A stretch of DNA of 64,000 bases from NCBI GenBank assembly GCA_964429815.1, contig CAYSCM010000001.1, forward strand, positions 352,001 to 416,000. The letters run 5' to 3'. This stretch comes from an uncultured Candidatus Saccharibacteria bacterium (GTDB taxonomy: Bacteria > Patescibacteriota > Minisyncoccia > Phycocordibacterales > CAYSCM01). A model generated the notes under the pieces. The model saw only the letters and a program-made list of their open reading frames with translations. It searched no databases and had not been told where the DNA came from. A program made the position numbers and the translations under genes. This document shows, one piece after another, positions 2,713-52,967 of the stretch; the stretch's first letter is position 1; each line of letters starts with the position of its first letter.

Positions 2713-4488
2713 TCAGCGTCCGCCCGTTTGTATCCGGACGTTGCCACCGCCGCGGGCGCTCCCGATGAGGCTCGGCGCTTGTTGCGTCACTGTCGTCGCA
2801 GCGGATATGGTGCGGGAGATTATTTGTTCTCCCTCGTCGAGACCCGAGGTTATTTCAACCGCGCTGTCGCTCGTGAGCCCGACCGTGACCGGCGTGCGGA
2901 TCGGTGTCTCGCTCGTCGTAAGGCCCTGTGCCGAGTCTGTGGACGTCGCGACGGGCGGGTTAAAGACCTCGACGTAACTTGCACCGCCTTGTGATTTGAC
3001 GGCGGAGGAGGGGACGATGAGCGCGTCCGTTTTGCTTCCGCTGATGATGGCGGCTGAAACGCTCATTCCAGGCTTGATGTGTGCGTCTTGGGTATCGAGA
3101 TGAATGTCAACGGTATAGGTGACCACCCCCTGCGAGACGGTGCCCACCGTATCGACCGATGCGACTTCACCGGTGATGGAAAGCCCGTCGATGGCGTCGA
3201 AGGTAAGGGTGGCCTTCTGTCCCACCCTGACCTTCGCGACATCGACCTCGTTTAGGGTTACCTCGGCGAGTTGATCGGACGTTACGAGCGTGGCAACAGC
3301 GCTCCCCGCGCTCACCGAGTCGTATTTTTTAACGTTGACCTTGGCAAGCGTTCCCGCGAAAGGCGCGTACACGGCATAATTGTTTAGTGTCTGCTGCGCA
3401 TCCAAGAGCGCGTTTCGTCGCTGCAACAACGTGAGCTGGGAGGATTGAATATCAAGACTATCCGCGCCCGCCTTTAATTTTTGAAGCGACTGTTGCTTTT
3501 CGAGAATCGTCGACGTAGCGGTCTCTATCGCCGTTTTGTTCGTCAGAAGGCTTTGCACGTCGCCATTGACCTGTCCCGTATACGTCCCGAGATTGGTGAG
3601 GTAGACAGTGAGCGTCGAAGGGATCGCAAGTGAGTGCTCGGTGAGCCGGTCTTTTACGAAGTTGTAGAGATCGGTCGCGCTTTTAATAGCGTCACTTATC
3701 TTTTTGCTGGTGTCATAGGATTCACCGATAAGGCCGGTAAGGGTGCCGGCGTCCGCGCCACGAGAAGTAGCTTTGTAGTCGGCAAACGTTTTGTTGTAGG
3801 CATCATTCGCCCCTAGGTAGGCAGCGATGGCGGCATCTTTGTAGGTTGTTACGTTGTTGTCGAAGAGGCGAACCATATCAGAGAACGCGGAAGCGTTGTC
3901 TTGCGTGTTTCCTCCGACATTGTTGTGACCATAGAGGGCGTCGTAGAGGCCGCTCATGACCGACGGCAAATTAAGGAACGCATTACTTACAGAGCTGAAA
4001 CCATTATCAAGACCTTGGCTGTAATCGCTTTGCGCTTGAGAGAGCGCGTTTTGGGCCTGCGTCAGGGAGAGCGTGTCCGCTGGCTCCGTCAATTTTTGAA
4101 GCGCTATCTGGGCGCTTTGAAGGTTAGCCTCCGCGTCTCGCACTCCTTTTTGCGCGTCGGCGCTGTCGAGGGCGACGATAAGTTGCCCTGCATGGACGAC
4201 CTGCCCCCGCGCGGGGCTTACGTATACGACGTCGCCTCCCGCTTTAGGCTTAAGGTCGATTTGCTGCGAAGCAAGAACCTGTCCGGTACCGGTCACCGAG
4301 GAGACGATGGTTCCGCGCTCCGCCCTAGCGAGCACGTAGCGCGTCTGACTCGGCGTCGACGAAAAAGCGCCATAGGCGTAATAGCAAAATCCAAAAAAGG
4401 CGAGAAGGGAAATAGCCGAGGTAATCTTATGAGCTTTTGCGCGGGCAACCATACGCATAAGAAAACGACTATTAGGAGAAGATTTCAT
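2713..4488 (-). CDS. HlyD/MacA-family periplasmic adaptor (efflux membrane fusion protein)
   Basis: 591 aa; N-terminal TM, long coiled-coil-like Q/A/L-rich region, C-terminal beta-barrel-like domain; first gene of a 3-gene efflux operon on the minus strand. Confidence 0.8.
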   Translation of the reverse strand: MKSSPNSRFLMRMVARAKAHKITSAISLLAFFGFCYYAYGAFSSTPSQTRYVLARAERGTIVSSVTGTGQVLASQQIDLKPKAGGDVVYVSPARGQVVHAGQLIVALDSADAQKGVRDAEANLQSAQIALQKLTEPADTLSLTQAQNALSQAQSDYSQGLDNGFSSVSNAFLNLPSVMSGLYDALYGHNNVGGNTQDNASAFSDMVRLFDNNVTTYKDAAIAAYLGANDAYNKTFADYKATSRGADAGTLTGLIGESYDTSKKISDAIKSATDLYNFVKDRLTEHSLAIPSTLTVYLTNLGTYTGQVNGDVQSLLTNKTAIETATSTILEKQQSLQKLKAGADSLDIQSSQLTLLQRRNALLDAQQTLNNYAVYAPFAGTLAKVNVKKYDSVSAGSAVATLVTSDQLAEVTLNEVDVAKVRVGQKATLTFDAIDGLSITGEVASVDTVGTVSQGVVTYTVDIHLDTQDAHIKPGMSVSAAIISGSKTDALIVPSSAVKSQGGASYVEVFNPPVATSTDSAQGLTTSETPIRTPVTVGLTSDSAVEITSGLDEGEQIISRTISAATTVTQQAPSLIGSARGGGNVRIQTGGR

Positions 4489-27492: not shown

Positions 27493-27873
27493 CTCGCACC
27501 CTACCGTCTCAGAAGCGACTGAAGGGAAGTAATGAAAACCGGGATGCTTAAAATTCCCGTCAGGTATTCTACTGATGTGTAGGCCTCTCCCGTTTTAAAG
27601 ATGTCATGGAAAAGGAGAAAATCAACGAACAAAAAGCCGACTATTAAAACAATGTCGAGTAGTTTTCTCATGCTCACATAACTAGTATACAAAGACTGGG
27701 TTTCTTAGCGGTCGGCGTAATTGTGTGTTACAACTCTTGGGTATTTAGGAGGCGTCGCATGGTGCTTTGAACCGTAGGTTTAAAGAGCTGGAGGCGCGAC
27801 GGCGGCGAGGCGGGGTCGCGGAAATTTTCAGTAGAAAATTATCCGTGACCTAGTGCACATTTGTTTGCAGGGC

Positions 27874-42493: not shown

Positions 42494-42566
42494 GCCGAGG
42501 TAGCTCAGTTGGTAGAGCATTTGTCTGAAGAACAAAGGGTCGCCGGTTCGATCCCGGCCCTCGGCA
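42494..42566 (+). tRNA. tRNA-Phe (anticodon GAA)
   Basis: Acceptor GCCGAGG/CCTCGGC, D-arm gctc-agttggta-gagc, anticodon stem tttgt/acaaa loop ctGAAga, T-arm gccgg-ttcgatc-ccggc, discriminator A. Confidence 0.9.
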
Positions 42567-42573
42567 CAAAATT
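42552..42573 (+). repeat. direct repeat copy 1 (tRNA-Phe 3' end, tcccggccctcggcacaaaatt)
   Basis: 22-bp segment spanning the tRNA-Phe T-stem 3' side, acceptor 3' strand, discriminator and 7 nt beyond; repeated identically at 42735-42756. Confidence 0.9.
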
Positions 42574-42734
42574 GAAATTGCCTGGACTGGCTCCAGGCAA
42601 TTTCAACTTCTGATGAGGGATCGAACCTGGAAGGGGTCGGGAAACGGGAGTTTCCCGTCGAGGAAAACAGCGAGCTTGCGAGCGTTAGAAACCGCGGGTT
42701 TCTAAAGAGCTGCGCAGCAGCTCAGGAGTGAGAT

Positions 42735-42756
42735 TCCCGGCCCTCGGCACAAAATT
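42735..42756 (+). repeat. direct repeat copy 2 (tRNA-Phe 3' end)
   Basis: Identical 22-mer 183 bp downstream of copy 1. Confidence 0.9.
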
Positions 42757-42827: not shown

Positions 42828-43136
42828 ATGGACCATAGCAATCATCAAGTACAAGAGCGTAACCATCAGGCATGTGCCCACGGCATGTGTCTGAATCACG
42901 ACCCGCAATGGGAGAAGGCAGAAGAAAGGCACTTCGAGCCTCGCCCGATGTGGTTCGGCCTCTATCAGGTCTATTGGACCGTACGTTGCTGCGGAAAGGC
43001 GATGAGGCGGGTTAAGGAAGTGATCACTCAACGATGCGCGAAGTGCGGCAGGTTTGGCGAAAAAGTTACAAAGTGGGAAATTGCACTTTGCTCCTGCTGC
43101 GGTCATCACGTAGATATGGGCGGTAGCTCACTGTGA
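42828..43136 (+). CDS. hypothetical His/Cys-rich small protein (putative metal-binding, zinc-ribbon-like C-terminus)
   Basis: 102 aa from ATG 42828 (aggaagg SD); MDHSNHQVQERNHQACAHGMCLNHD... CCGK... CAKCGRF... CSCCGHH; lower GC than neighbours. Confidence 0.45.
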   Translation: MDHSNHQVQERNHQACAHGMCLNHDPQWEKAEERHFEPRPMWFGLYQVYWTVRCCGKAMRRVKEVITQRCAKCGRFGEKVTKWEIALCSCCGHHVDMGGSSL

Positions 43137-48621: not shown

Positions 48622-48640
48622 GTGCGCGGTAAGGGACTCG
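48622..48640 (-). repeat. direct repeat copy (tRNA-Val 3' end, gtgcgcggtaagggactcg on + strand)
   Basis: 19-bp identical copy of the tRNA-Val acceptor 3' side/discriminator region, 198 bp downstream (tRNA sense) of the tRNA and 1 nt from the NUDIX start codon. Confidence 0.9.
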
Positions 48641-48819
48641 GTCACGAATAATCTACTCGTCGTCGCTCGCAGATTTTCGCGACCCCGGCTCGGTATCAAA
48701 AGCTGCTGCTTTTGATATACCTGCGCCCTTCGAGTCCCTTATGGAAGCGACACTGGTCGCTTCCTCCCGCGCAACAACGAAATTAAAAAACGATGGCAGA
48801 AGCCATATTTTTTAATTTA

Positions 48820-48838
48820 GTGCGCGGTAAGGGACTCG
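48820..48838 (-). repeat. direct repeat copy within the tRNA-Val 3' end
   Basis: Same 19-mer inside the tRNA-Val gene. Confidence 0.9.
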
Positions 48839-49575: not shown

Positions 49576-49662
49576 GGAGAGGTGGCTGAGTGGTCGAAAG
49601 CGGCGCCGTGCTAAGGCGTTAGGGGCGAAAGTCTCTCGTGGGTTCGAATCCCACCCTCTCCG
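49576..49662 (+). tRNA. tRNA-Ser (anticodon GCT)
   Basis: Acceptor GGAGAGG/CCTCTCC, D-loop GG, anticodon stem gcgcc/ggcgt loop gtGCTaa, long variable arm, T-arm gtggg-ttcgaat-cccac, discriminator G. Confidence 0.9.
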
Positions 49663-49664
49663 CA
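49645..49664 (+). repeat. attL-like repeat (3' end of tRNA-Ser GCT)
   Basis: cgaatcccaccctctccgca. Confidence 0.8.
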
Positions 49665-49715
49665 AATGTTGCCTATAGGGACAGAACAATCTCGATTTCC
49701 TGTTATACTTTCGTT

Positions 49716-50441
49716 ATGGCGAACCTTGAAGGAGGACCCAATTCGAACGTCGAAAAAGAAAAGAAAATCCGAGAAGCAGAACAAGAGCTTGATTCAATCG
49801 ATCTGAATCCGGACAAACTTCGCCCTCTCTCGCCTGATGAGATCCACAGTCTTCATAGTAACCTCGCCGATCTTCTCTACTCAGCAGAAACAACTAGAAC
49901 GTTAGCTGACTTACCGGACTCTCCCGAAATTCGAGGGATCAGTGGGGAAGAACAAACCCGAATTGCGATTCAGAAACTCCATGAACGCGGTCAAGAGCTT
50001 CTTAAGAAGACCATTGACGACGAACGACTCCGTGCCGACCTGACTGAAAAAATTAGAGAGTATCATCGCTCAAACTGGCGTGAGGCTTTTGCGAATGAAA
50101 TCACCCAAGGACGAACGCCTTTCGGCGATGCGAGTAACTCGATTATTGAATTTTACCGAACCAAGGGGATCAATATTGAGAATCCGACGGAAGAGGACAT
50201 TGATAAGTATTTTGAGCGAAAAGAATACGACGCTGCAGCATTTGGCCTTGAATTTAAACGCCGACGTCGAAAACAGTTTGCGGATATGGATAACCAGAAG
50301 TTTTCCGATTTTCAAAGTTTATTTTGGCGGATGTTTAGGGTGCCTGATGGGCATGGATGGTTCACAACCCTTATGAACGGCAAGGCGTTTGTGCAGAAGC
50401 TCGACGAAATCAACGAAGCTCTGAAGCATAAAACTCCATAG
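49716..50441 (+). CDS. hypothetical protein (island cargo)
   Basis: 241 aa from MANLEGG (ORF-track N-terminus overlaps the tRNA and was trimmed); acidic, helical, low GC. Confidence 0.5.
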   Translation: MANLEGGPNSNVEKEKKIREAEQELDSIDLNPDKLRPLSPDEIHSLHSNLADLLYSAETTRTLADLPDSPEIRGISGEEQTRIAIQKLHERGQELLKKTIDDERLRADLTEKIREYHRSNWREAFANEITQGRTPFGDASNSIIEFYRTKGINIENPTEEDIDKYFERKEYDAAAFGLEFKRRRRKQFADMDNQKFSDFQSLFWRMFRVPDGHGWFTTLMNGKAFVQKLDEINEALKHKTP

Positions 50442-50773
50442 GGGCATAGGAGACTGTGTTTATTTATGCCAACACGATACCACTTTTTCTTTTTCTAGCC
50501 TGTATGGCCGATTTCCACGCCATGCAAAAGACAGATCTCTTTGATACACTCTAATCGCTCCATGAAGATTGGATCGCGTAGCTGTATCCGGGTTCGAACA
50601 TCGTTCAGGCCTGCCCGCTCGGACCGGTAAATGTCCAGATAGGTCAATTTTGAAAAAGAGCCTTATGAAATGGGCCTCTTTTTCGTCTCCCAAATTCGCC
50701 AAAAAGGTTCGAATCCTAACCAGTCTCTGCTTCCTCACCTTGGTGATGTATATTTAGGCCATCATTTTAATCT

Positions 50774-51427
50774 ATGGTGCCAACCGAGATTATCCTGGCT
50801 AGTGTAAGTTCTCCTTTTGAAATTGGCGCACAAATCGCCGAGATTATTATTGCGGCAGGGACAATTGTGGGGCTCGGGTTTTCGATATGGTTTTCGCGAA
50901 GAACTCTGCAACGATCGGATTGGAATTCAATAATGACTACCGCTCCCAGCATTGCGATCGAGTGTCGTAGTGATGGATTTTGGTTGAATGATAGGCCAAC
51001 TGCCGGAGGTTCTTGGGGAGAGCCCACACGCCATCTCGAACCTTCAGGAAAGTACGTCACCTTCGCGTTGAGATTTAGAATCTCAAATCAGGGGAGGGGT
51101 CTAGCACTTGCTATTAAGCCCGAAGTTTCTTGTAAGGCGAAAGCTTGGGTGGGAGGGATTCAGAATTTCCCTGTTTGGATGGGCACCGACAATGAGGACA
51201 AATCAGATCTTGCTGTTGACATACAGGAAGAGGACTTCAAATGGCTCGAACTGATGAAAAATCCTTTGCATTTGGCGCTGAGCATTAGCTACAAAAATGA
51301 CCAGGGCAACATTGCTTGCACCTCTAGGTGGTCGGCTAACCTGCAACCGTTTACAGTTAATGGAACTCGTCTTGAAATATGCCGGGACCGAATCCAAGAG
51401 CCTAGTATGCAAATTACTTATAGTTGA
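50774..51427 (+). CDS. hypothetical membrane-anchored protein (island cargo)
   Basis: 217 aa with N-terminal TM, low GC. Confidence 0.5.
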   Translation: MVPTEIILASVSSPFEIGAQIAEIIIAAGTIVGLGFSIWFSRRTLQRSDWNSIMTTAPSIAIECRSDGFWLNDRPTAGGSWGEPTRHLEPSGKYVTFALRFRISNQGRGLALAIKPEVSCKAKAWVGGIQNFPVWMGTDNEDKSDLAVDIQEEDFKWLELMKNPLHLALSISYKNDQGNIACTSRWSANLQPFTVNGTRLEICRDRIQEPSMQITYS

Positions 51428-52107
51428 CTCGAAAAACTGTGAAATTCGAACTCAAAAAAATCAGAAGAAACACCCCAGATGACGAACTTCTTAGTGATCT
51501 GAAAACTACAGCAACAAAGTTAGGACAGCAATTTGTCACGAGGGCTCAGCAGGACCAATTTGGAAAATTTGATAGCTCGAACATGTCGAGGCGACTAGGG
51601 GGATGGGCAAAAGCTCATGAGCGTGCTGGTCTTAGGCTTGCACGTCATCAAAAGAGTCTGAAAGCTTCAGAAAACGAACTATTGCAAAATTTGGAAGAGG
51701 TTTGGACAAGGCTAGGACGACAACCGAATAGTCAGGATATGTTTGCTCCTATCTCACGCTTTGGCGTGAGTGCGTATAAACGCCACTTCGGCAGTTGGAT
51801 GAAAGCTCTCGAGAAGTTTGTTTCGATCGCAAATTTTGAGGGTGCTTTGACAAATGGATCGGATGAGGAGACTGTTGTTTCTGGGTCAAAGCGTAGGACA
51901 AAGCGAGAAGTCAATTGGAAGACGCGCTTTCTTGTAATGCGTCGGGATAATTTCAAATGCAAAAGTTGTGGACGGTCACCGGCTACGGACGCTGGAACTA
52001 TTCTCAATGTGGATCACATAAAGGCCTGGGCGAATGGGGGTGAAACTGTCCTAGACAATCTACAGACCCTATGTGCGGTCTGTAATCTGGGCAAAAGCAA
52101 TCTATAA
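51424..52107 (+). CDS. HNH endonuclease with N-terminal tandem helix-turn-helix-like repeats
   Basis: C-terminal HNH motif VMRRDNFKCKSCGRS...VDHIKAWANGGETVLDNLQTLCAVCN; two N-terminal repeats (...RRLGGWAKAHERAGL / ...KRHFGSWMKALEKF); 4-nt overlap with the upstream gene. Confidence 0.72.
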   Translation: MTRKTVKFELKKIRRNTPDDELLSDLKTTATKLGQQFVTRAQQDQFGKFDSSNMSRRLGGWAKAHERAGLRLARHQKSLKASENELLQNLEEVWTRLGRQPNSQDMFAPISRFGVSAYKRHFGSWMKALEKFVSIANFEGALTNGSDEETVVSGSKRRTKREVNWKTRFLVMRRDNFKCKSCGRSPATDAGTILNVDHIKAWANGGETVLDNLQTLCAVCNLGKSNL

Positions 52108-52247
52108 GGCATCCGGCGGCAACCCCATTCCTTCCTGTTTCAATATCCAGCGGATTTCCTCGCTCAATAATCACTCCTAGACAATCACACACGTTTTGGT
52201 TGTATGTGCTCAGAAGTACATTTGGCCATGCAAGGGAGTGTCTGCTA

Positions 52248-52517
52248 ATGAGCATGAAACCTACCCGCATAACTTTTGAAAATCCAAAATACGGCAAGGT
52301 TGAGTGGACTTTGCCCGAACACGTTGAAACAGCGCTCGCCGCCAATGCTTCATCAAGTGCTGAGATGGAGGAGGCGGTGAAATTCTTAGCACGAACAACA
52401 GCCAAAGTGTTCGGCACGATTGTCTATTGCTTCACTCTAGGCAAATTGCCTGACCTCGACGCTTTCCTTGGTCAATTCGCGGAAAAAGGCGAAGCGAAGC
52501 CACCACCCTCTCACTGA
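52248..52517 (+). CDS. hypothetical protein (island cargo)
   Basis: ~89 aa from MSMKPTRITF. Confidence 0.3.
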   Translation: MSMKPTRITFENPKYGKVEWTLPEHVETALAANASSSAEMEEAVKFLARTTAKVFGTIVYCFTLGKLPDLDAFLGQFAEKGEAKPPPSH

Positions 52518-52555
52518 GACTTTCAGGACGTACCCTAGCGGTACGTCCCTTCTTT

Positions 52556-52732
52556 TTAGTCAGACAGCTCCTTACCGTCTCGTCGGATTTCTTCCCGCAC
52601 CCACTCTCGAAGCCTCGCCTTTCTAACGGCTTCCTTTTCCAGTTTTCGCATCTCCTTCTCACTCTTGTCCGGCCAGTCAATTTTCACACCCTGGCGAGCG
52701 CAAACACGTTTGATAAGATGAAAGCGCTCCAT
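52556..52732 (-). CDS. hypothetical small basic protein (island cargo), start inside internal repeat B
   Basis: MERFHLIKRVCARQGVKIDWPDKSEKEMRKLEKEAVRKARLREWVREEIRRDGKELSD; a truncated homolog (MERLECIKEICLLHGVEIGHTG) starts at 50563 (-) inside repeat A. Confidence 0.35.
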   Translation of the reverse strand: MERFHLIKRVCARQGVKIDWPDKSEKEMRKLEKEAVRKARLREWVREEIRRDGKELSD

Positions 52733-52947
52733 GAACGATGGCTCGCGTAGCCATAGCCGGGTTCGAACGTCGTTCAGGCCTGCCCGCAACGGTTTGTAAG
52801 AATGCTCCGGTGGAGCATTCACGCAAAGCGTCGGATTTGTCGTGAGGTGGGATTCGAAAGGCGGAGCCCGACAAACGCAAAGCGTTTGTTTCGGGCGAGC
52901 CCGGGCAGGAGCCACTTTCCGCCGGAGGCGGATTAGTGAGCTGACGC

Positions 52948-52967
52948 CGAATCCCACCCTCTCCGCA
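52948..52967 (+). repeat. attR-like repeat (copy of tRNA-Ser GCT 3' end)
   Basis: Identical cgaatcccaccctctccgca 3.3 kb downstream. Confidence 0.8.

Follow-up and report, generated by a model that had tools for sequence, protein, structure and literature searches.

The DNA examined here is a stretch of 64,000 nt from the contig CAYSCM010000001.1 of an uncultured Candidatus Saccharibacteria bacterium (the window; all positions given below are window positions, and L-numbers are the locus labels of this analysis). Our subject is a unit of 183 bp associated with the gene for tRNA-Phe(GAA), which we interpret below as a probable member of a family of small integrative elements. The tRNA gene, the putative target of this element, is located at 42494-42567 on the plus strand, as called by ARAGORN and by the Rfam tRNA model (74.1 bits); it is intact and does not encode CCA. 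The last 15 nt of the tRNA and 7 nt of its trailer form a direct repeat of 22 nt, TCCCGGCCCTCGGCACAAAATT, hereafter identity block T. Copy 1 of T (42552-42573) represents an attL-like junction, and copy 2 (42735-42756), on the same strand and identical at 22/22 positions, an attR-like junction with the displaced or duplicated tRNA 3′ end. With up to three mismatches allowed, these were the only two copies in the window, and none was found in 100 shuffles; the exact repeat of the tRNA 3′ end described in the original prediction is thus real.

The two copies of T enclose a spacer of 161 nt (42574-42734) without an open reading frame (ORF). A tRNA-Phe followed by a structured spacer of this length had been proposed from the letters alone, and ARAGORN, Rfam and inverted-repeat analysis recovered both. 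The first structure, on the plus strand like all those that follow, is a hairpin (inverted repeat I1, 42569-42609), whose arms at 42569-42586 and 42592-42609 are 18 nt long and 94% complementary and contain the perfect 14-bp core reported earlier. Its stem is AT-rich, it is not followed by a canonical U-tract and it was not called by a simple terminator scan; in other members of the family this position holds a gene end, a terminator or payload genes. The motif CTGATGA at 42610-42616 was considered as part of a hammerhead ribozyme, a candidate that was dropped as the motif is not conserved in relatives. Next comes an 11-nt segment, the guide (GGGATCGAACC, 42617-42627), which is the exact reverse complement of the guide target GGTTCGATCCC in the T-stem and T-loop of the tRNA (42545-42555). 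This segment was previously noted as an inverted copy of the T-arm. Its target spans the left edge of T and comprises 7 nt of the tRNA to the left of T and the first 4 nt of T itself.

A 5-nt linker, TGGAA, separates the guide from GGGGTCG; both are part of a conserved scaffold at 42628-42734. This scaffold belongs to what we call subfamily B and matches a pattern shared by at least 123 metagenomic and four genome copies. It comprises, in this order, the linker, GGGGTCGGG, hairpin 1 (42638-42657), the motif GAGGAA (inside 42658-42668), a hairpin that is variable, hairpin 3 (42685-42705), whose top reads ACC-GNG-GGU, one additional hairpin (42707-42723) and, as its tail, AGGAGTGAGAT (42724-42734). 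The additional hairpins that had been suspected in the spacer correspond to the ones at 42638-42657, 42685-42705 and 42707-42723. Folding, proposed as a check, showed the spacer to be far more stable than shuffled sequences on both strands (z = -4.8 on the plus strand and -6.6 on the minus strand), with none of 200 shuffles equally stable. The locus is identical in an independent public (Logan) assembly and is therefore not an assembly artefact.

The Logan assemblies of the same organism end at about 39331, at the start of lepA, and at about 49640-49662, inside tRNA-Ser(GCT). The second of these breaks coincides with the edge of an island described below and is consistent with a contig end induced by repeats or polymorphism. 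Between the tRNA-Phe unit and hsp20 lies an ORF of 102 aa rich in Cys and His (42828-43136), for which no significant Pfam or PHROG family was found, with a weak match to DUF7130 (E 0.009) under the cut-off. It represents an extra insertion, since hsp20 directly follows tRNA-Phe in most related genomes, and no further copy of the repeat bounds it. The suggestion that this gene sits in DNA of lower GC content was not borne out: its GC is 0.52-0.53, while the window averages 0.553, and GC is similarly low throughout the tRNA cluster at 41.4-43.2 kb.

Occupied and empty sites at orthologous loci

Using the neighbouring LepA protein as query, 80 loci were collected, nearly all from metagenome-assembled genomes of the Patescibacteria group (Paceibacteria, Parcubacteria and similar names), with LepA identities of 62-69%. 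The gene order LepA, (tRNA-Gly), tRNA-Arg, tRNA-Phe is widely conserved across these loci. About 30 of the 45 orthologous LepA-tRNA-Arg-tRNA-Phe loci are empty sites, in which tRNA-Phe is followed by a terminator and hsp20. The unit is missing from some two thirds of the orthologous tRNA-Phe loci; universal conservation as ordinary intergenic sequence was among the outcomes that the original prediction had named as refuting it. At the filled sites, modules of three scaffold subfamilies were identified: in ten other tRNA-Phe loci the tRNA's own 3′ end is copied exactly (13-28 nt) at 42-182 nt downstream, and in a few further loci this interior is present but the repeat has decayed. L009 and L020 have spacers homologous to that of the window, hairpin for hairpin, with compensatory changes, and the scaffold of the window copy shares 29/29 nt (GGAAGGGGTCGGGAAACGGGAGTTTCCCG) with a copy located at tRNA-Arg in L072.

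Islands inserted by an integrase usually leave a duplicated tRNA 3′ end as their footprint, and the repeat, together with the very small size of the unit, would fit a functionless decayed scar of such an island or a chance local duplication. Such a remnant should not have an interior conserved with compensatory changes across genomes of 62-69% LepA identity, and further evidence against it is given with the metagenome data below.

Two observations concern the sequences behind tRNA-Phe and other tRNAs in these loci. In L052, L066, L078 and L082, tRNA-Phe is followed by units of 66-74 nt, in tandem in L066, which consist of an AT-rich stretch and a copied tRNA segment that runs from variable loop to 3′ end, with no recognisable scaffold; these may be a fourth type or simple tandem duplications. 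In addition, terminator palindromes after tRNAs often reach into the 3′ strand of the acceptor and the trailer (L074 tRNA-Phe, L015 tRNA-Glu, L062, L066 and L070), as illustrated by the GCACCA...TGGTGC palindrome at the otherwise empty site of L074 and by a perfect arm in L015 that is at least 21 nt long. The inverted copies may arise by fold-back copying or by gene conversion in the vicinity of terminators.

Scaffold subfamilies and their fold

The pattern found at tRNA-Phe is repeated in the LepA loci at tRNAs for Gly, Arg, Ser, Leu, Lys, Trp and Val. Across the 80 loci and the window, at least eight tRNA specificities are followed by an exact copy of 13-29 nt of their own 3′ end at 27-192 nt downstream (355 nt in one case), and inverted copies lie between the tRNA and the direct copy. 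The scaffolds, which occupy the same position between the inverted and direct copies of the adjacent tRNA 3′ end, were assigned to three subfamilies: (i) subfamily A, with the pattern GCC..hairpin..GAG(G/C)CGGGGTCG(C/A)G..hairpin..GTGACC; (ii) subfamily B, the tRNA-Phe type, with GGGGTCGRG, a hairpin, GAGGA, a variable hairpin and a hairpin with a AACCGNGGGTT top; and (iii) subfamily C, with ..GGAAAAGCACCTGGCTATGTAATAGC. The window copy has the layout of subfamily B, with a guide complementary to the target before the scaffold and a copy of the target after it. The inverted T-arm copy of the original prediction is a general feature of the family, a target-complementary arm at a fixed position of the module. 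Tandem arrays were found both mixed, with an A copy followed by a B copy in L233, and of one type (L052, L066 and L082), as well as in L177.

RNAalifold analysis of 11 subfamily A scaffolds predicted 17 pairs, ten of them with compensatory changes, and one G·U pair was present in 11/11 sequences; this invariant pair and the compensatory changes place the structure of subfamily A on the tRNA-sense strand. Among 123 distinct cores of subfamily B, swaps between AU and GC pairs occur at seven positions in both conserved hairpins (1 and 3), and G·U pairs outnumber A·C mismatches by 27 to 11. The scaffold is a folded single strand under selection. On one side of the stem formed by guide and T there is a bulged hairpin, which in subfamilies A and C lies on the guide side (P2) and in subfamily B on the T side (AGCGAAGCG). 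A T-side bulged mini-hairpin, GATAGCGAAGCG, observed for example in the subfamily B copies of L204, L227, L233, L248, L268 and L287, contains TAGCGA/TAGCGT, which resembles the CS-6 motif of the ssoA-type single-strand origins of rolling-circle plasmids and is mentioned as a lead only.

A covariance model built from subfamily A (R1) recognises copies outside its training set, both in the window and in other loci. No family of Rfam 15 matches the module: the hits in the whole window at gathering thresholds, and those around tRNA-Phe and tRNA-Val at E <= 10, were all tRNAs. The proposed search for other copies was successful in the window, in other genomes and in metagenomes.

Three tRNA-related candidates were rejected. 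A tmRNA-like or aminoacylatable tRNA mimic was set aside because the guide pairs with the discriminator, and with CCA where this is encoded, which would sequester the 3′ end of such a mimic. A primer-binding site of retroviral type, copied from a mature tRNA, does not agree with guides that hold complements of the trailer and in which TGG is not consistent, and a tRNA-like gene on the minus strand would lack the 3′ strand of the acceptor.

Two other settings of the modules were noted. A free-standing unit of 207 nt (L251, 3754-3960 and 6355-6561; also L220, L269, L292 and L294) has a perfect X-loop-rc(X) hairpin, i.e., a sequence, a loop and its reverse complement, directly before a subfamily B scaffold, with no gene end involved, and one of its copies forms the centre of a long terminator palindrome. 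In L306 (1065-2952), two tRNA-Ile genes with a module each are inverted around duplicated ORFs. The arrangement has the appearance of a palindrome created in assembly or of a true inverted duplication, and the locus was set aside from the analysis.

Further members in the window and their payloads

In total four members of the family are present in the 64-kb window: the tRNA-Phe unit, a unit at tRNA-Val, a 3.3-kb version at tRNA-Ser(GCT) and an orphan module. The second member, of subfamily A, lies downstream of tRNA-Val(GAC) at 48622-48838 on the minus strand (R1 82 bits, with this copy in the training set), and the tRNA and its unit together span 48893 to 48620. Its parts, all on the minus strand, are the T copies at 48820-48838 and 48622-48640, a terminator (48780-48818), a guide in two parts (48767-48773 and 48729-48741), the bulged hairpin P2 (48743-48764) and the core GAGCCGGGGTCGCGAA (48676-48691). 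The duplicated tRNA-Val 3′ end stops 1 nt before the start codon of a NUDIX gene (48620), which has no Shine-Dalgarno sequence, and the modules of L061 and L081 likewise abut the start codon of tsaD. Processing of the tRNA type at such a T copy would give near-leaderless mRNAs.

The third member carries a payload of 3.3 kb at tRNA-Ser(GCT) (49645-52967, plus strand) and is bounded by a 20/20 repeat (49645-49664 and 52948-52967). It encodes four to five ORFs, including an HNH homing endonuclease (51424-52107; PF18780, PF01844) and three or four ORFs without a family match, and no integrase family was matched in this payload by Pfam. Its right end is closed by a guide (52849-52858) and a module (52845-52959), on the plus strand, recognised by R1 with 35.4 bits (E 2.8e-9) although this copy was outside the training set. 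Within the island, a 79-nt repeat (50540-50618 and 52709-52787, 82% identical) includes the start of a small minus-strand ORF (MERFHLIK...), and a tRNA-like T-arm fragment at 50706-50721 suggests that the island is composite. The fourth member is an orphan subfamily A module at 27772-27861 on the plus strand, just upstream of tRNA-Ser(GGA), whose flanking target copies are decayed (R1 60.6 bits, with this copy in the training set).

Another payload was found at the tRNA-Glu of L061, where 1.2 kb with two small membrane ORFs and a terminator precede the module, which is matched by R1 from outside the training set. The tRNA-Ser island of the window and L061 were the only cases of kilobase-scale tRNA 3′-end copies in the 80 loci searched, and no payload ORF was found within reach in the metagenomic copies (at least 123 listed). 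The tRNA-Phe unit therefore represents the payload-less extreme of a cassette series, as the same right-end module closes the copies that carry genes over 1-3 kb.

Targets and geometry in metagenomes

A scan of metagenomes with the subfamily B pattern identified at least 120 loci with at least 123 copies, 110 of which were analysed for their geometry. Among the 123 copies listed, 69 lie downstream of a co-oriented tRNA of about 20 amino-acid specificities, nearly all at a distance of 20-100 nt. For the remaining 54 no tRNA was detected upstream, and those inspected have the same architecture at other conserved genes. The targets of the family thus also include tmRNA and the ends of protein genes: the 3′ end of tmRNA (L204, L248), the 5′ ends of dnaK (L205) and of a glycosyltransferase gene (L216, L234, L283), and the 3′ ends of gap (L217), rplL (L237), an rplK-like gene (L247) and a gene for a small basic protein (L235, L241), with further gene ends in addition. 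Among the matches listed, one scaffold serves more than 30 different targets.

The common layout consists of the gene body, T, the outer gene end, which brings a terminator or promoter of its own, a payload of 0 to >3 kb, the guide, the scaffold, a second T and an orphan gene end. A guide complement with a score of at least 20 was found in the copy's own upstream region for 71% of the copies compared to 4% when the upstream regions of other loci were used, and a direct repeat with a score of at least 24 in 57% compared to 2%. The guide target overlaps the left edge of T, and the guide ends 6 nt before GGGG in 29/49 well-defined copies. T has a median length of 24 nt (range 12-70) and the guide of 16 nt (range 10-29). 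At 5′-end targets the scaffold is antisense to the gene, which shows that the rule of the layout is geometric, with the gene body on the guide side, rather than transcriptional.

These data bear on the decayed or chance duplication introduced above, as the same module recurs at dozens of targets unrelated to one another, even the copies with payload yielded no integrase, and the subfamily B pattern had no match in 2.9 million viral contigs. We regard such a scar as extremely improbable. A loose subfamily A pattern applied to the viral contigs gave 120 loci, of which 119 were chance matches and one was real. The latter, L177 (IMGVR_UViG_3300033463_005745, about 2850-3319 of a 34.7-kb contig, near the contig start), contains a tandem pair of subfamily A modules with tRNA-like 3′ fragments and no intact tRNA, and may be the host flank of a predicted provirus.

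It could also be proposed that the module is a non-mobile structured small RNA of the host, for example derived from a trailer or tRNA-like, which is matured by tRNA enzymes and for which the repeats act as processing or pairing signals. The covarying helices, the ability of guide and T to stack like an acceptor and T-arm in subfamilies A and C, and the copies that end at the start codon of the next gene (the tRNA-Val unit of the window, L061 and L081) are what such an RNA would be expected to show. It does not account for the patchy presence at orthologous sites, the payload of some copies, the tandem arrays, the inclusion of tRNA trailer nucleotides in the repeat, the terminators upstream of many copies, the antisense orientation of the module at 5′-end targets, or the imported, homeologous gene ends described in the next section. 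A host RNA is therefore considered very unlikely.

Imported gene ends

For several protein genes the two copies of the gene end are not identical, and the differences are informative. In L205 the dnaK ends differ at 10 of 51 nt, eight of them at third codon positions, with one amino-acid change, and in L217 the gap ends encode 11/11 identical residues despite eight nucleotide differences, including a serine switch between TCT and AGT. The automated version of this codon-position test was noisy from frame errors, and L205 and L217 were checked by hand. In L283 an identity block of 41/41 is followed by differing N-terminal extensions (MKPIQNKKKILYV vs MPEKTKKKILYV). At tRNA targets, the terminators within the repeats of L225 and L276 diverge by compensatory changes, and the orphan tRNA-Gly end of L074 is identical to the tRNA-Gly found in L082, a different lineage, and incompatible with the tRNA resident in L074. 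Since most differences between the paired copies of a protein-gene end fall at synonymous sites, one of the copies was imported. Judging from these substitution patterns, the two copies probably evolved as parts of functional genes in different lineages, from which it would follow that the element moves between lineages and exchanges gene ends.

Gene ends that are homeologous are also what co-conversion predicts, and natural transformation followed by homologous recombination could in principle produce the observed layout with no dedicated enzyme, the duplicated gene end and the gene body serving as portable homology arms and the scaffold having a different role, for example in stability, uptake or termination. 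DNA-uptake machinery is widespread among Patescibacteria, and the targets are among the genes most conserved at the DNA level, both of which speak for this explanation. It leaves unexplained why every copy retains a scaffold of about 100 nt, the motifs of which are near-invariant, together with an arm that is complementary to the target and fixed in position, and how the scaffold spread to more than 30 unrelated targets with a matched guide and T; T is, moreover, often 15-25 nt, which is short for RecA-dependent exchange. Transformation and recombination alone thus seem an improbable origin, if less so than a host RNA.

Interpretation and proposed mechanism

With a probability of about 0.6, we consider the 183-bp unit at tRNA-Phe to be a complete, payload-less copy of a family of cassette-like, non-autonomous integrative elements of Patescibacteria. 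This family is widespread in the group and apparently undescribed, as no published description was found in full-text literature searches or in Rfam 15. The architecture, its recurrence at many targets, the insertion polymorphism, the tandem arrays, the imported gene ends and the covarying structure on one strand are all directly observed. The original prediction had offered a miniature element, a structured RNA and a recombination module as alternatives, and the evidence fits the three combined. Its wording of a "miniature or decayed" element holds for its first half; the unit is not decayed and represents a complete member of a large family without payload.

The best reading of the attachment module is that it folds into a mimic of its target. 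Since the guide is the target's reverse complement across T's left edge, it can pair with the downstream T, and a single strand of the module, either DNA or RNA, would then form a stem copying the target duplex, with the conserved scaffold as a cap. It is proposed that a free form, circular or other, which contains T, a gene end, payload, guide and scaffold, recombines with the chromosomal target inside T, and that the integrated layout would be the product of a single exchange inside T between the chromosome and this free form. Such an exchange would restore the gene with an element-borne end and displace the end native to the host; tandem arrays would be possible, since the exchange regenerates the target. 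The module of guide, scaffold and T would act as the attachment and targeting site of an enzyme supplied in trans, for which the scaffold capping the guide/T stem presumably provides the platform. For the tRNA-Phe locus this scheme predicts GGTCGCCGGTTCGATCCCGGCCCTCGGCACAAAATTATGGGTTG as the empty-site junction and GGAGTGAGATTCCCGGCCCTCGGCACAAAATTGAAATTGCC as the junction of a circle or tandem. The presence of a target-complementary arm in a folded non-coding module hints at a programmable choice of the insertion site. More tentatively, at clearly less than even odds, the guide-scaffold-T module may be the substrate or cofactor of an undescribed programmable recombination or homing system. This would be a non-coding sequence of about 100 nt that specifies its own site by complementarity, can be retargeted to the ends of essentially any conserved gene, swaps gene ends between lineages, and is mobilised by an enzyme in trans or by host enzymes that act on the folded strand.

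Several observations weigh against the cassette interpretation. No recombinase, transposase or reverse transcriptase was found in or beside any copy, and the payload-bearing copies encode only the HNH homing endonuclease and proteins without a known family. A free or circular form of the element was not observed, nor was an empty site in a near-identical strain, the only close relatives being the identical Logan contigs. The distance between the boundary of T and the scaffold varies from 0 to 16 nt, in contrast to what a strict site-specific crossover would give. Only at a few loci does the codon-position test give a clear outcome, and gene conversion from the adjacent gene could yield some of the exact guide complementarity. 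Finally, a terminator stands in front of many copies, where there is no space for a promoter, and a role of the module as RNA is for this reason not assured.

This last point also bears on a version of the cassette interpretation in which RNA is the active molecule. Here the module would be transcribed, in the manner of a bridge RNA or a homing guide, and a recombinase or nuclease encoded in trans would insert the cassette or drive homing. This would be in line with the fixed distance of the guide 5′ of the conserved scaffold, with the more than 30 targets of one scaffold among the matches listed, and with the excess of G·U pairs over A·C mismatches and the invariant G·U pair; targeting of both strands has a precedent in the bridge RNAs of IS110 and in TIGR-Tas (PMC11208160, PMC12045711). 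Apart from the terminators, an associated protein gene was not found, the module points away from the gene at 5′-end targets, where native transcription would produce the antisense strand, and the guide is one contiguous complement overlapping T rather than a set of split, non-overlapping guides. Furthermore, the target is regenerated intact, so that a guided nuclease would also cut occupied sites. An RNA-guided mode is therefore rather doubtful, although it is less so than transformation alone. A target-primed retro-insertion route can reproduce the layout on paper; a published survey reports no group II introns in the phylum (PMC13011429).

If the proposed interpretation is correct, Patescibacteria carry abundant tiny mobile cassettes, as illustrated by four in a 64-kb window and at least 120 metagenome loci, which have gone unannotated, since they have no coding content and resemble tRNA trailers. 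The choice of target would be written in a short complementary arm beside a conserved scaffold. Such targeting is a hallmark of bridge RNAs, of OMEGA and CRISPR guides and of group II introns; here there is no protein alongside, which would raise the question of which enzyme reads the module. The ends of essential genes (tRNA, tmRNA, dnaK, gap and ribosomal protein genes) would be exchanged between lineages through an unrecognised micro-scale route of horizontal transfer. The element may also act as an addiction mechanism, as its loss would break the gene once the displaced end has decayed, and the modules would account for many of the "partial tRNA" fragments, and of the contig breaks, that assemblies of these genomes contain.

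Comparison with known systems

Genomic islands at tRNA and tmRNA genes and the derivatives of these that lack an integrase (CIMEs) share with the family the insertion at a 3′ end, the restoration of the gene by an element-borne end, the flanking direct repeats and the existence of non-autonomous derivatives. The 22/22 direct repeat of the tRNA-Phe unit is of this kind. However, such islands are kilobases long and depend on an integrase for one site, whereas the element described here is as small as about 150 nt, and a single module family is used at more than 30 targets, 5′ ends of protein genes among them. An integrase gene beside the att site is absent from the 161-nt interior and from the 3.3-kb and 1.2-kb relatives, and instead of one or a few sites the family uses tRNAs of about 20 specificities, tmRNA and several protein genes. 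The family also differs from miniature inverted-repeat transposable elements, as its inverted arms are locus-specific and correspond to the local target, and its repeat, which can be homeologous, has a length of 12-70 nt.

Patescibacteria commonly contain group I introns (PMC13011429). The internal guide sequence of such introns is comparable to the guide in that it is complementary to the sequence to the right and then to the left of the insertion and lies on the 5′ side of a structured RNA. The scaffold of about 100 nt is, however, too small for an intron core, the gene is not interrupted, and the module is antisense at 5′-end targets; no Rfam model of a group I intron matched at E <= 10, and the tRNA upstream of the unit is intact. 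The tRNA group I introns of PMC13011429 were considered as a possible earlier description of the family and rejected, as that paper concerns true introns.

The bridge (seek) RNAs of IS110/IS1111 elements and the TIGR-Tas systems, the latter reported in candidate phyla radiation (CPR) bacteria (PMC12045711), likewise combine a conserved non-coding scaffold with short programmable segments that match the target, and represent both target strands in one molecule. Unlike the modules described here, these RNAs are encoded beside their protein, use split, non-overlapping guides of 4-9 nt and are not associated with duplicated gene ends. The family has a contiguous guide of 10-29 nt that overlaps T, and the duplicated gene end can be long. 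As regards IS110, no gene for a DEDD/RuvC-like recombinase was found beside the copies examined, and the two loops with split guides are replaced by a single contiguous guide and T that pair with each other. As regards TIGR-Tas, there are no arrays of units of about 36 nt with two 9-nt spacers; the modules are 100-130 nt long and dispersed at gene ends, with no adjacent tas-like (Nop-domain) gene.

Integron cassettes resemble the family more closely. In both, a copy of the target core is followed by a variable payload, which is sometimes missing, an inverted copy, a structured centre and a direct copy; arrays form at one site, the cassettes have no recombinase of their own, and in the family, as in attC, the site would be determined less by sequence than by how one strand folds. 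The differences lie in the site itself. The family has no core sites of the type RYYYAAC/GTTRRRY: the junctions read GGTTCGA/TCCC at tRNAs (the stroke marks the junction), and those at protein genes (L283, L290, L302 and L319) are mutually unrelated, with no common core by inspection. Compared to the 7-nt universal core of attC, its stem copies 10-29 nt of the local target gene; its centre is a conserved scaffold with near-invariant motifs, unlike the variable loop at the centre of attC; and the role of attI falls to the end of any one of dozens of housekeeping genes. No integrase family, IntI included, was found among the genes annotated in the 64-kb window, which is the part of the genome covered. 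Phages of the CTX type, which integrate folded single-stranded DNA through the XerCD enzymes of the host, share the order of target copy, short loop, inverted copy, element and target copy, the lack of an own recombinase and, if the proposed fold is correct, a folded stem that mimics a double-stranded target. CTX targets only dif and encodes phage genes, unlike the family, which has many targets and no recognised dif-like site. By analogy, the family would work most like a cassette of the integron or CTX type, in which a stem matched to the target replaces the universal core.

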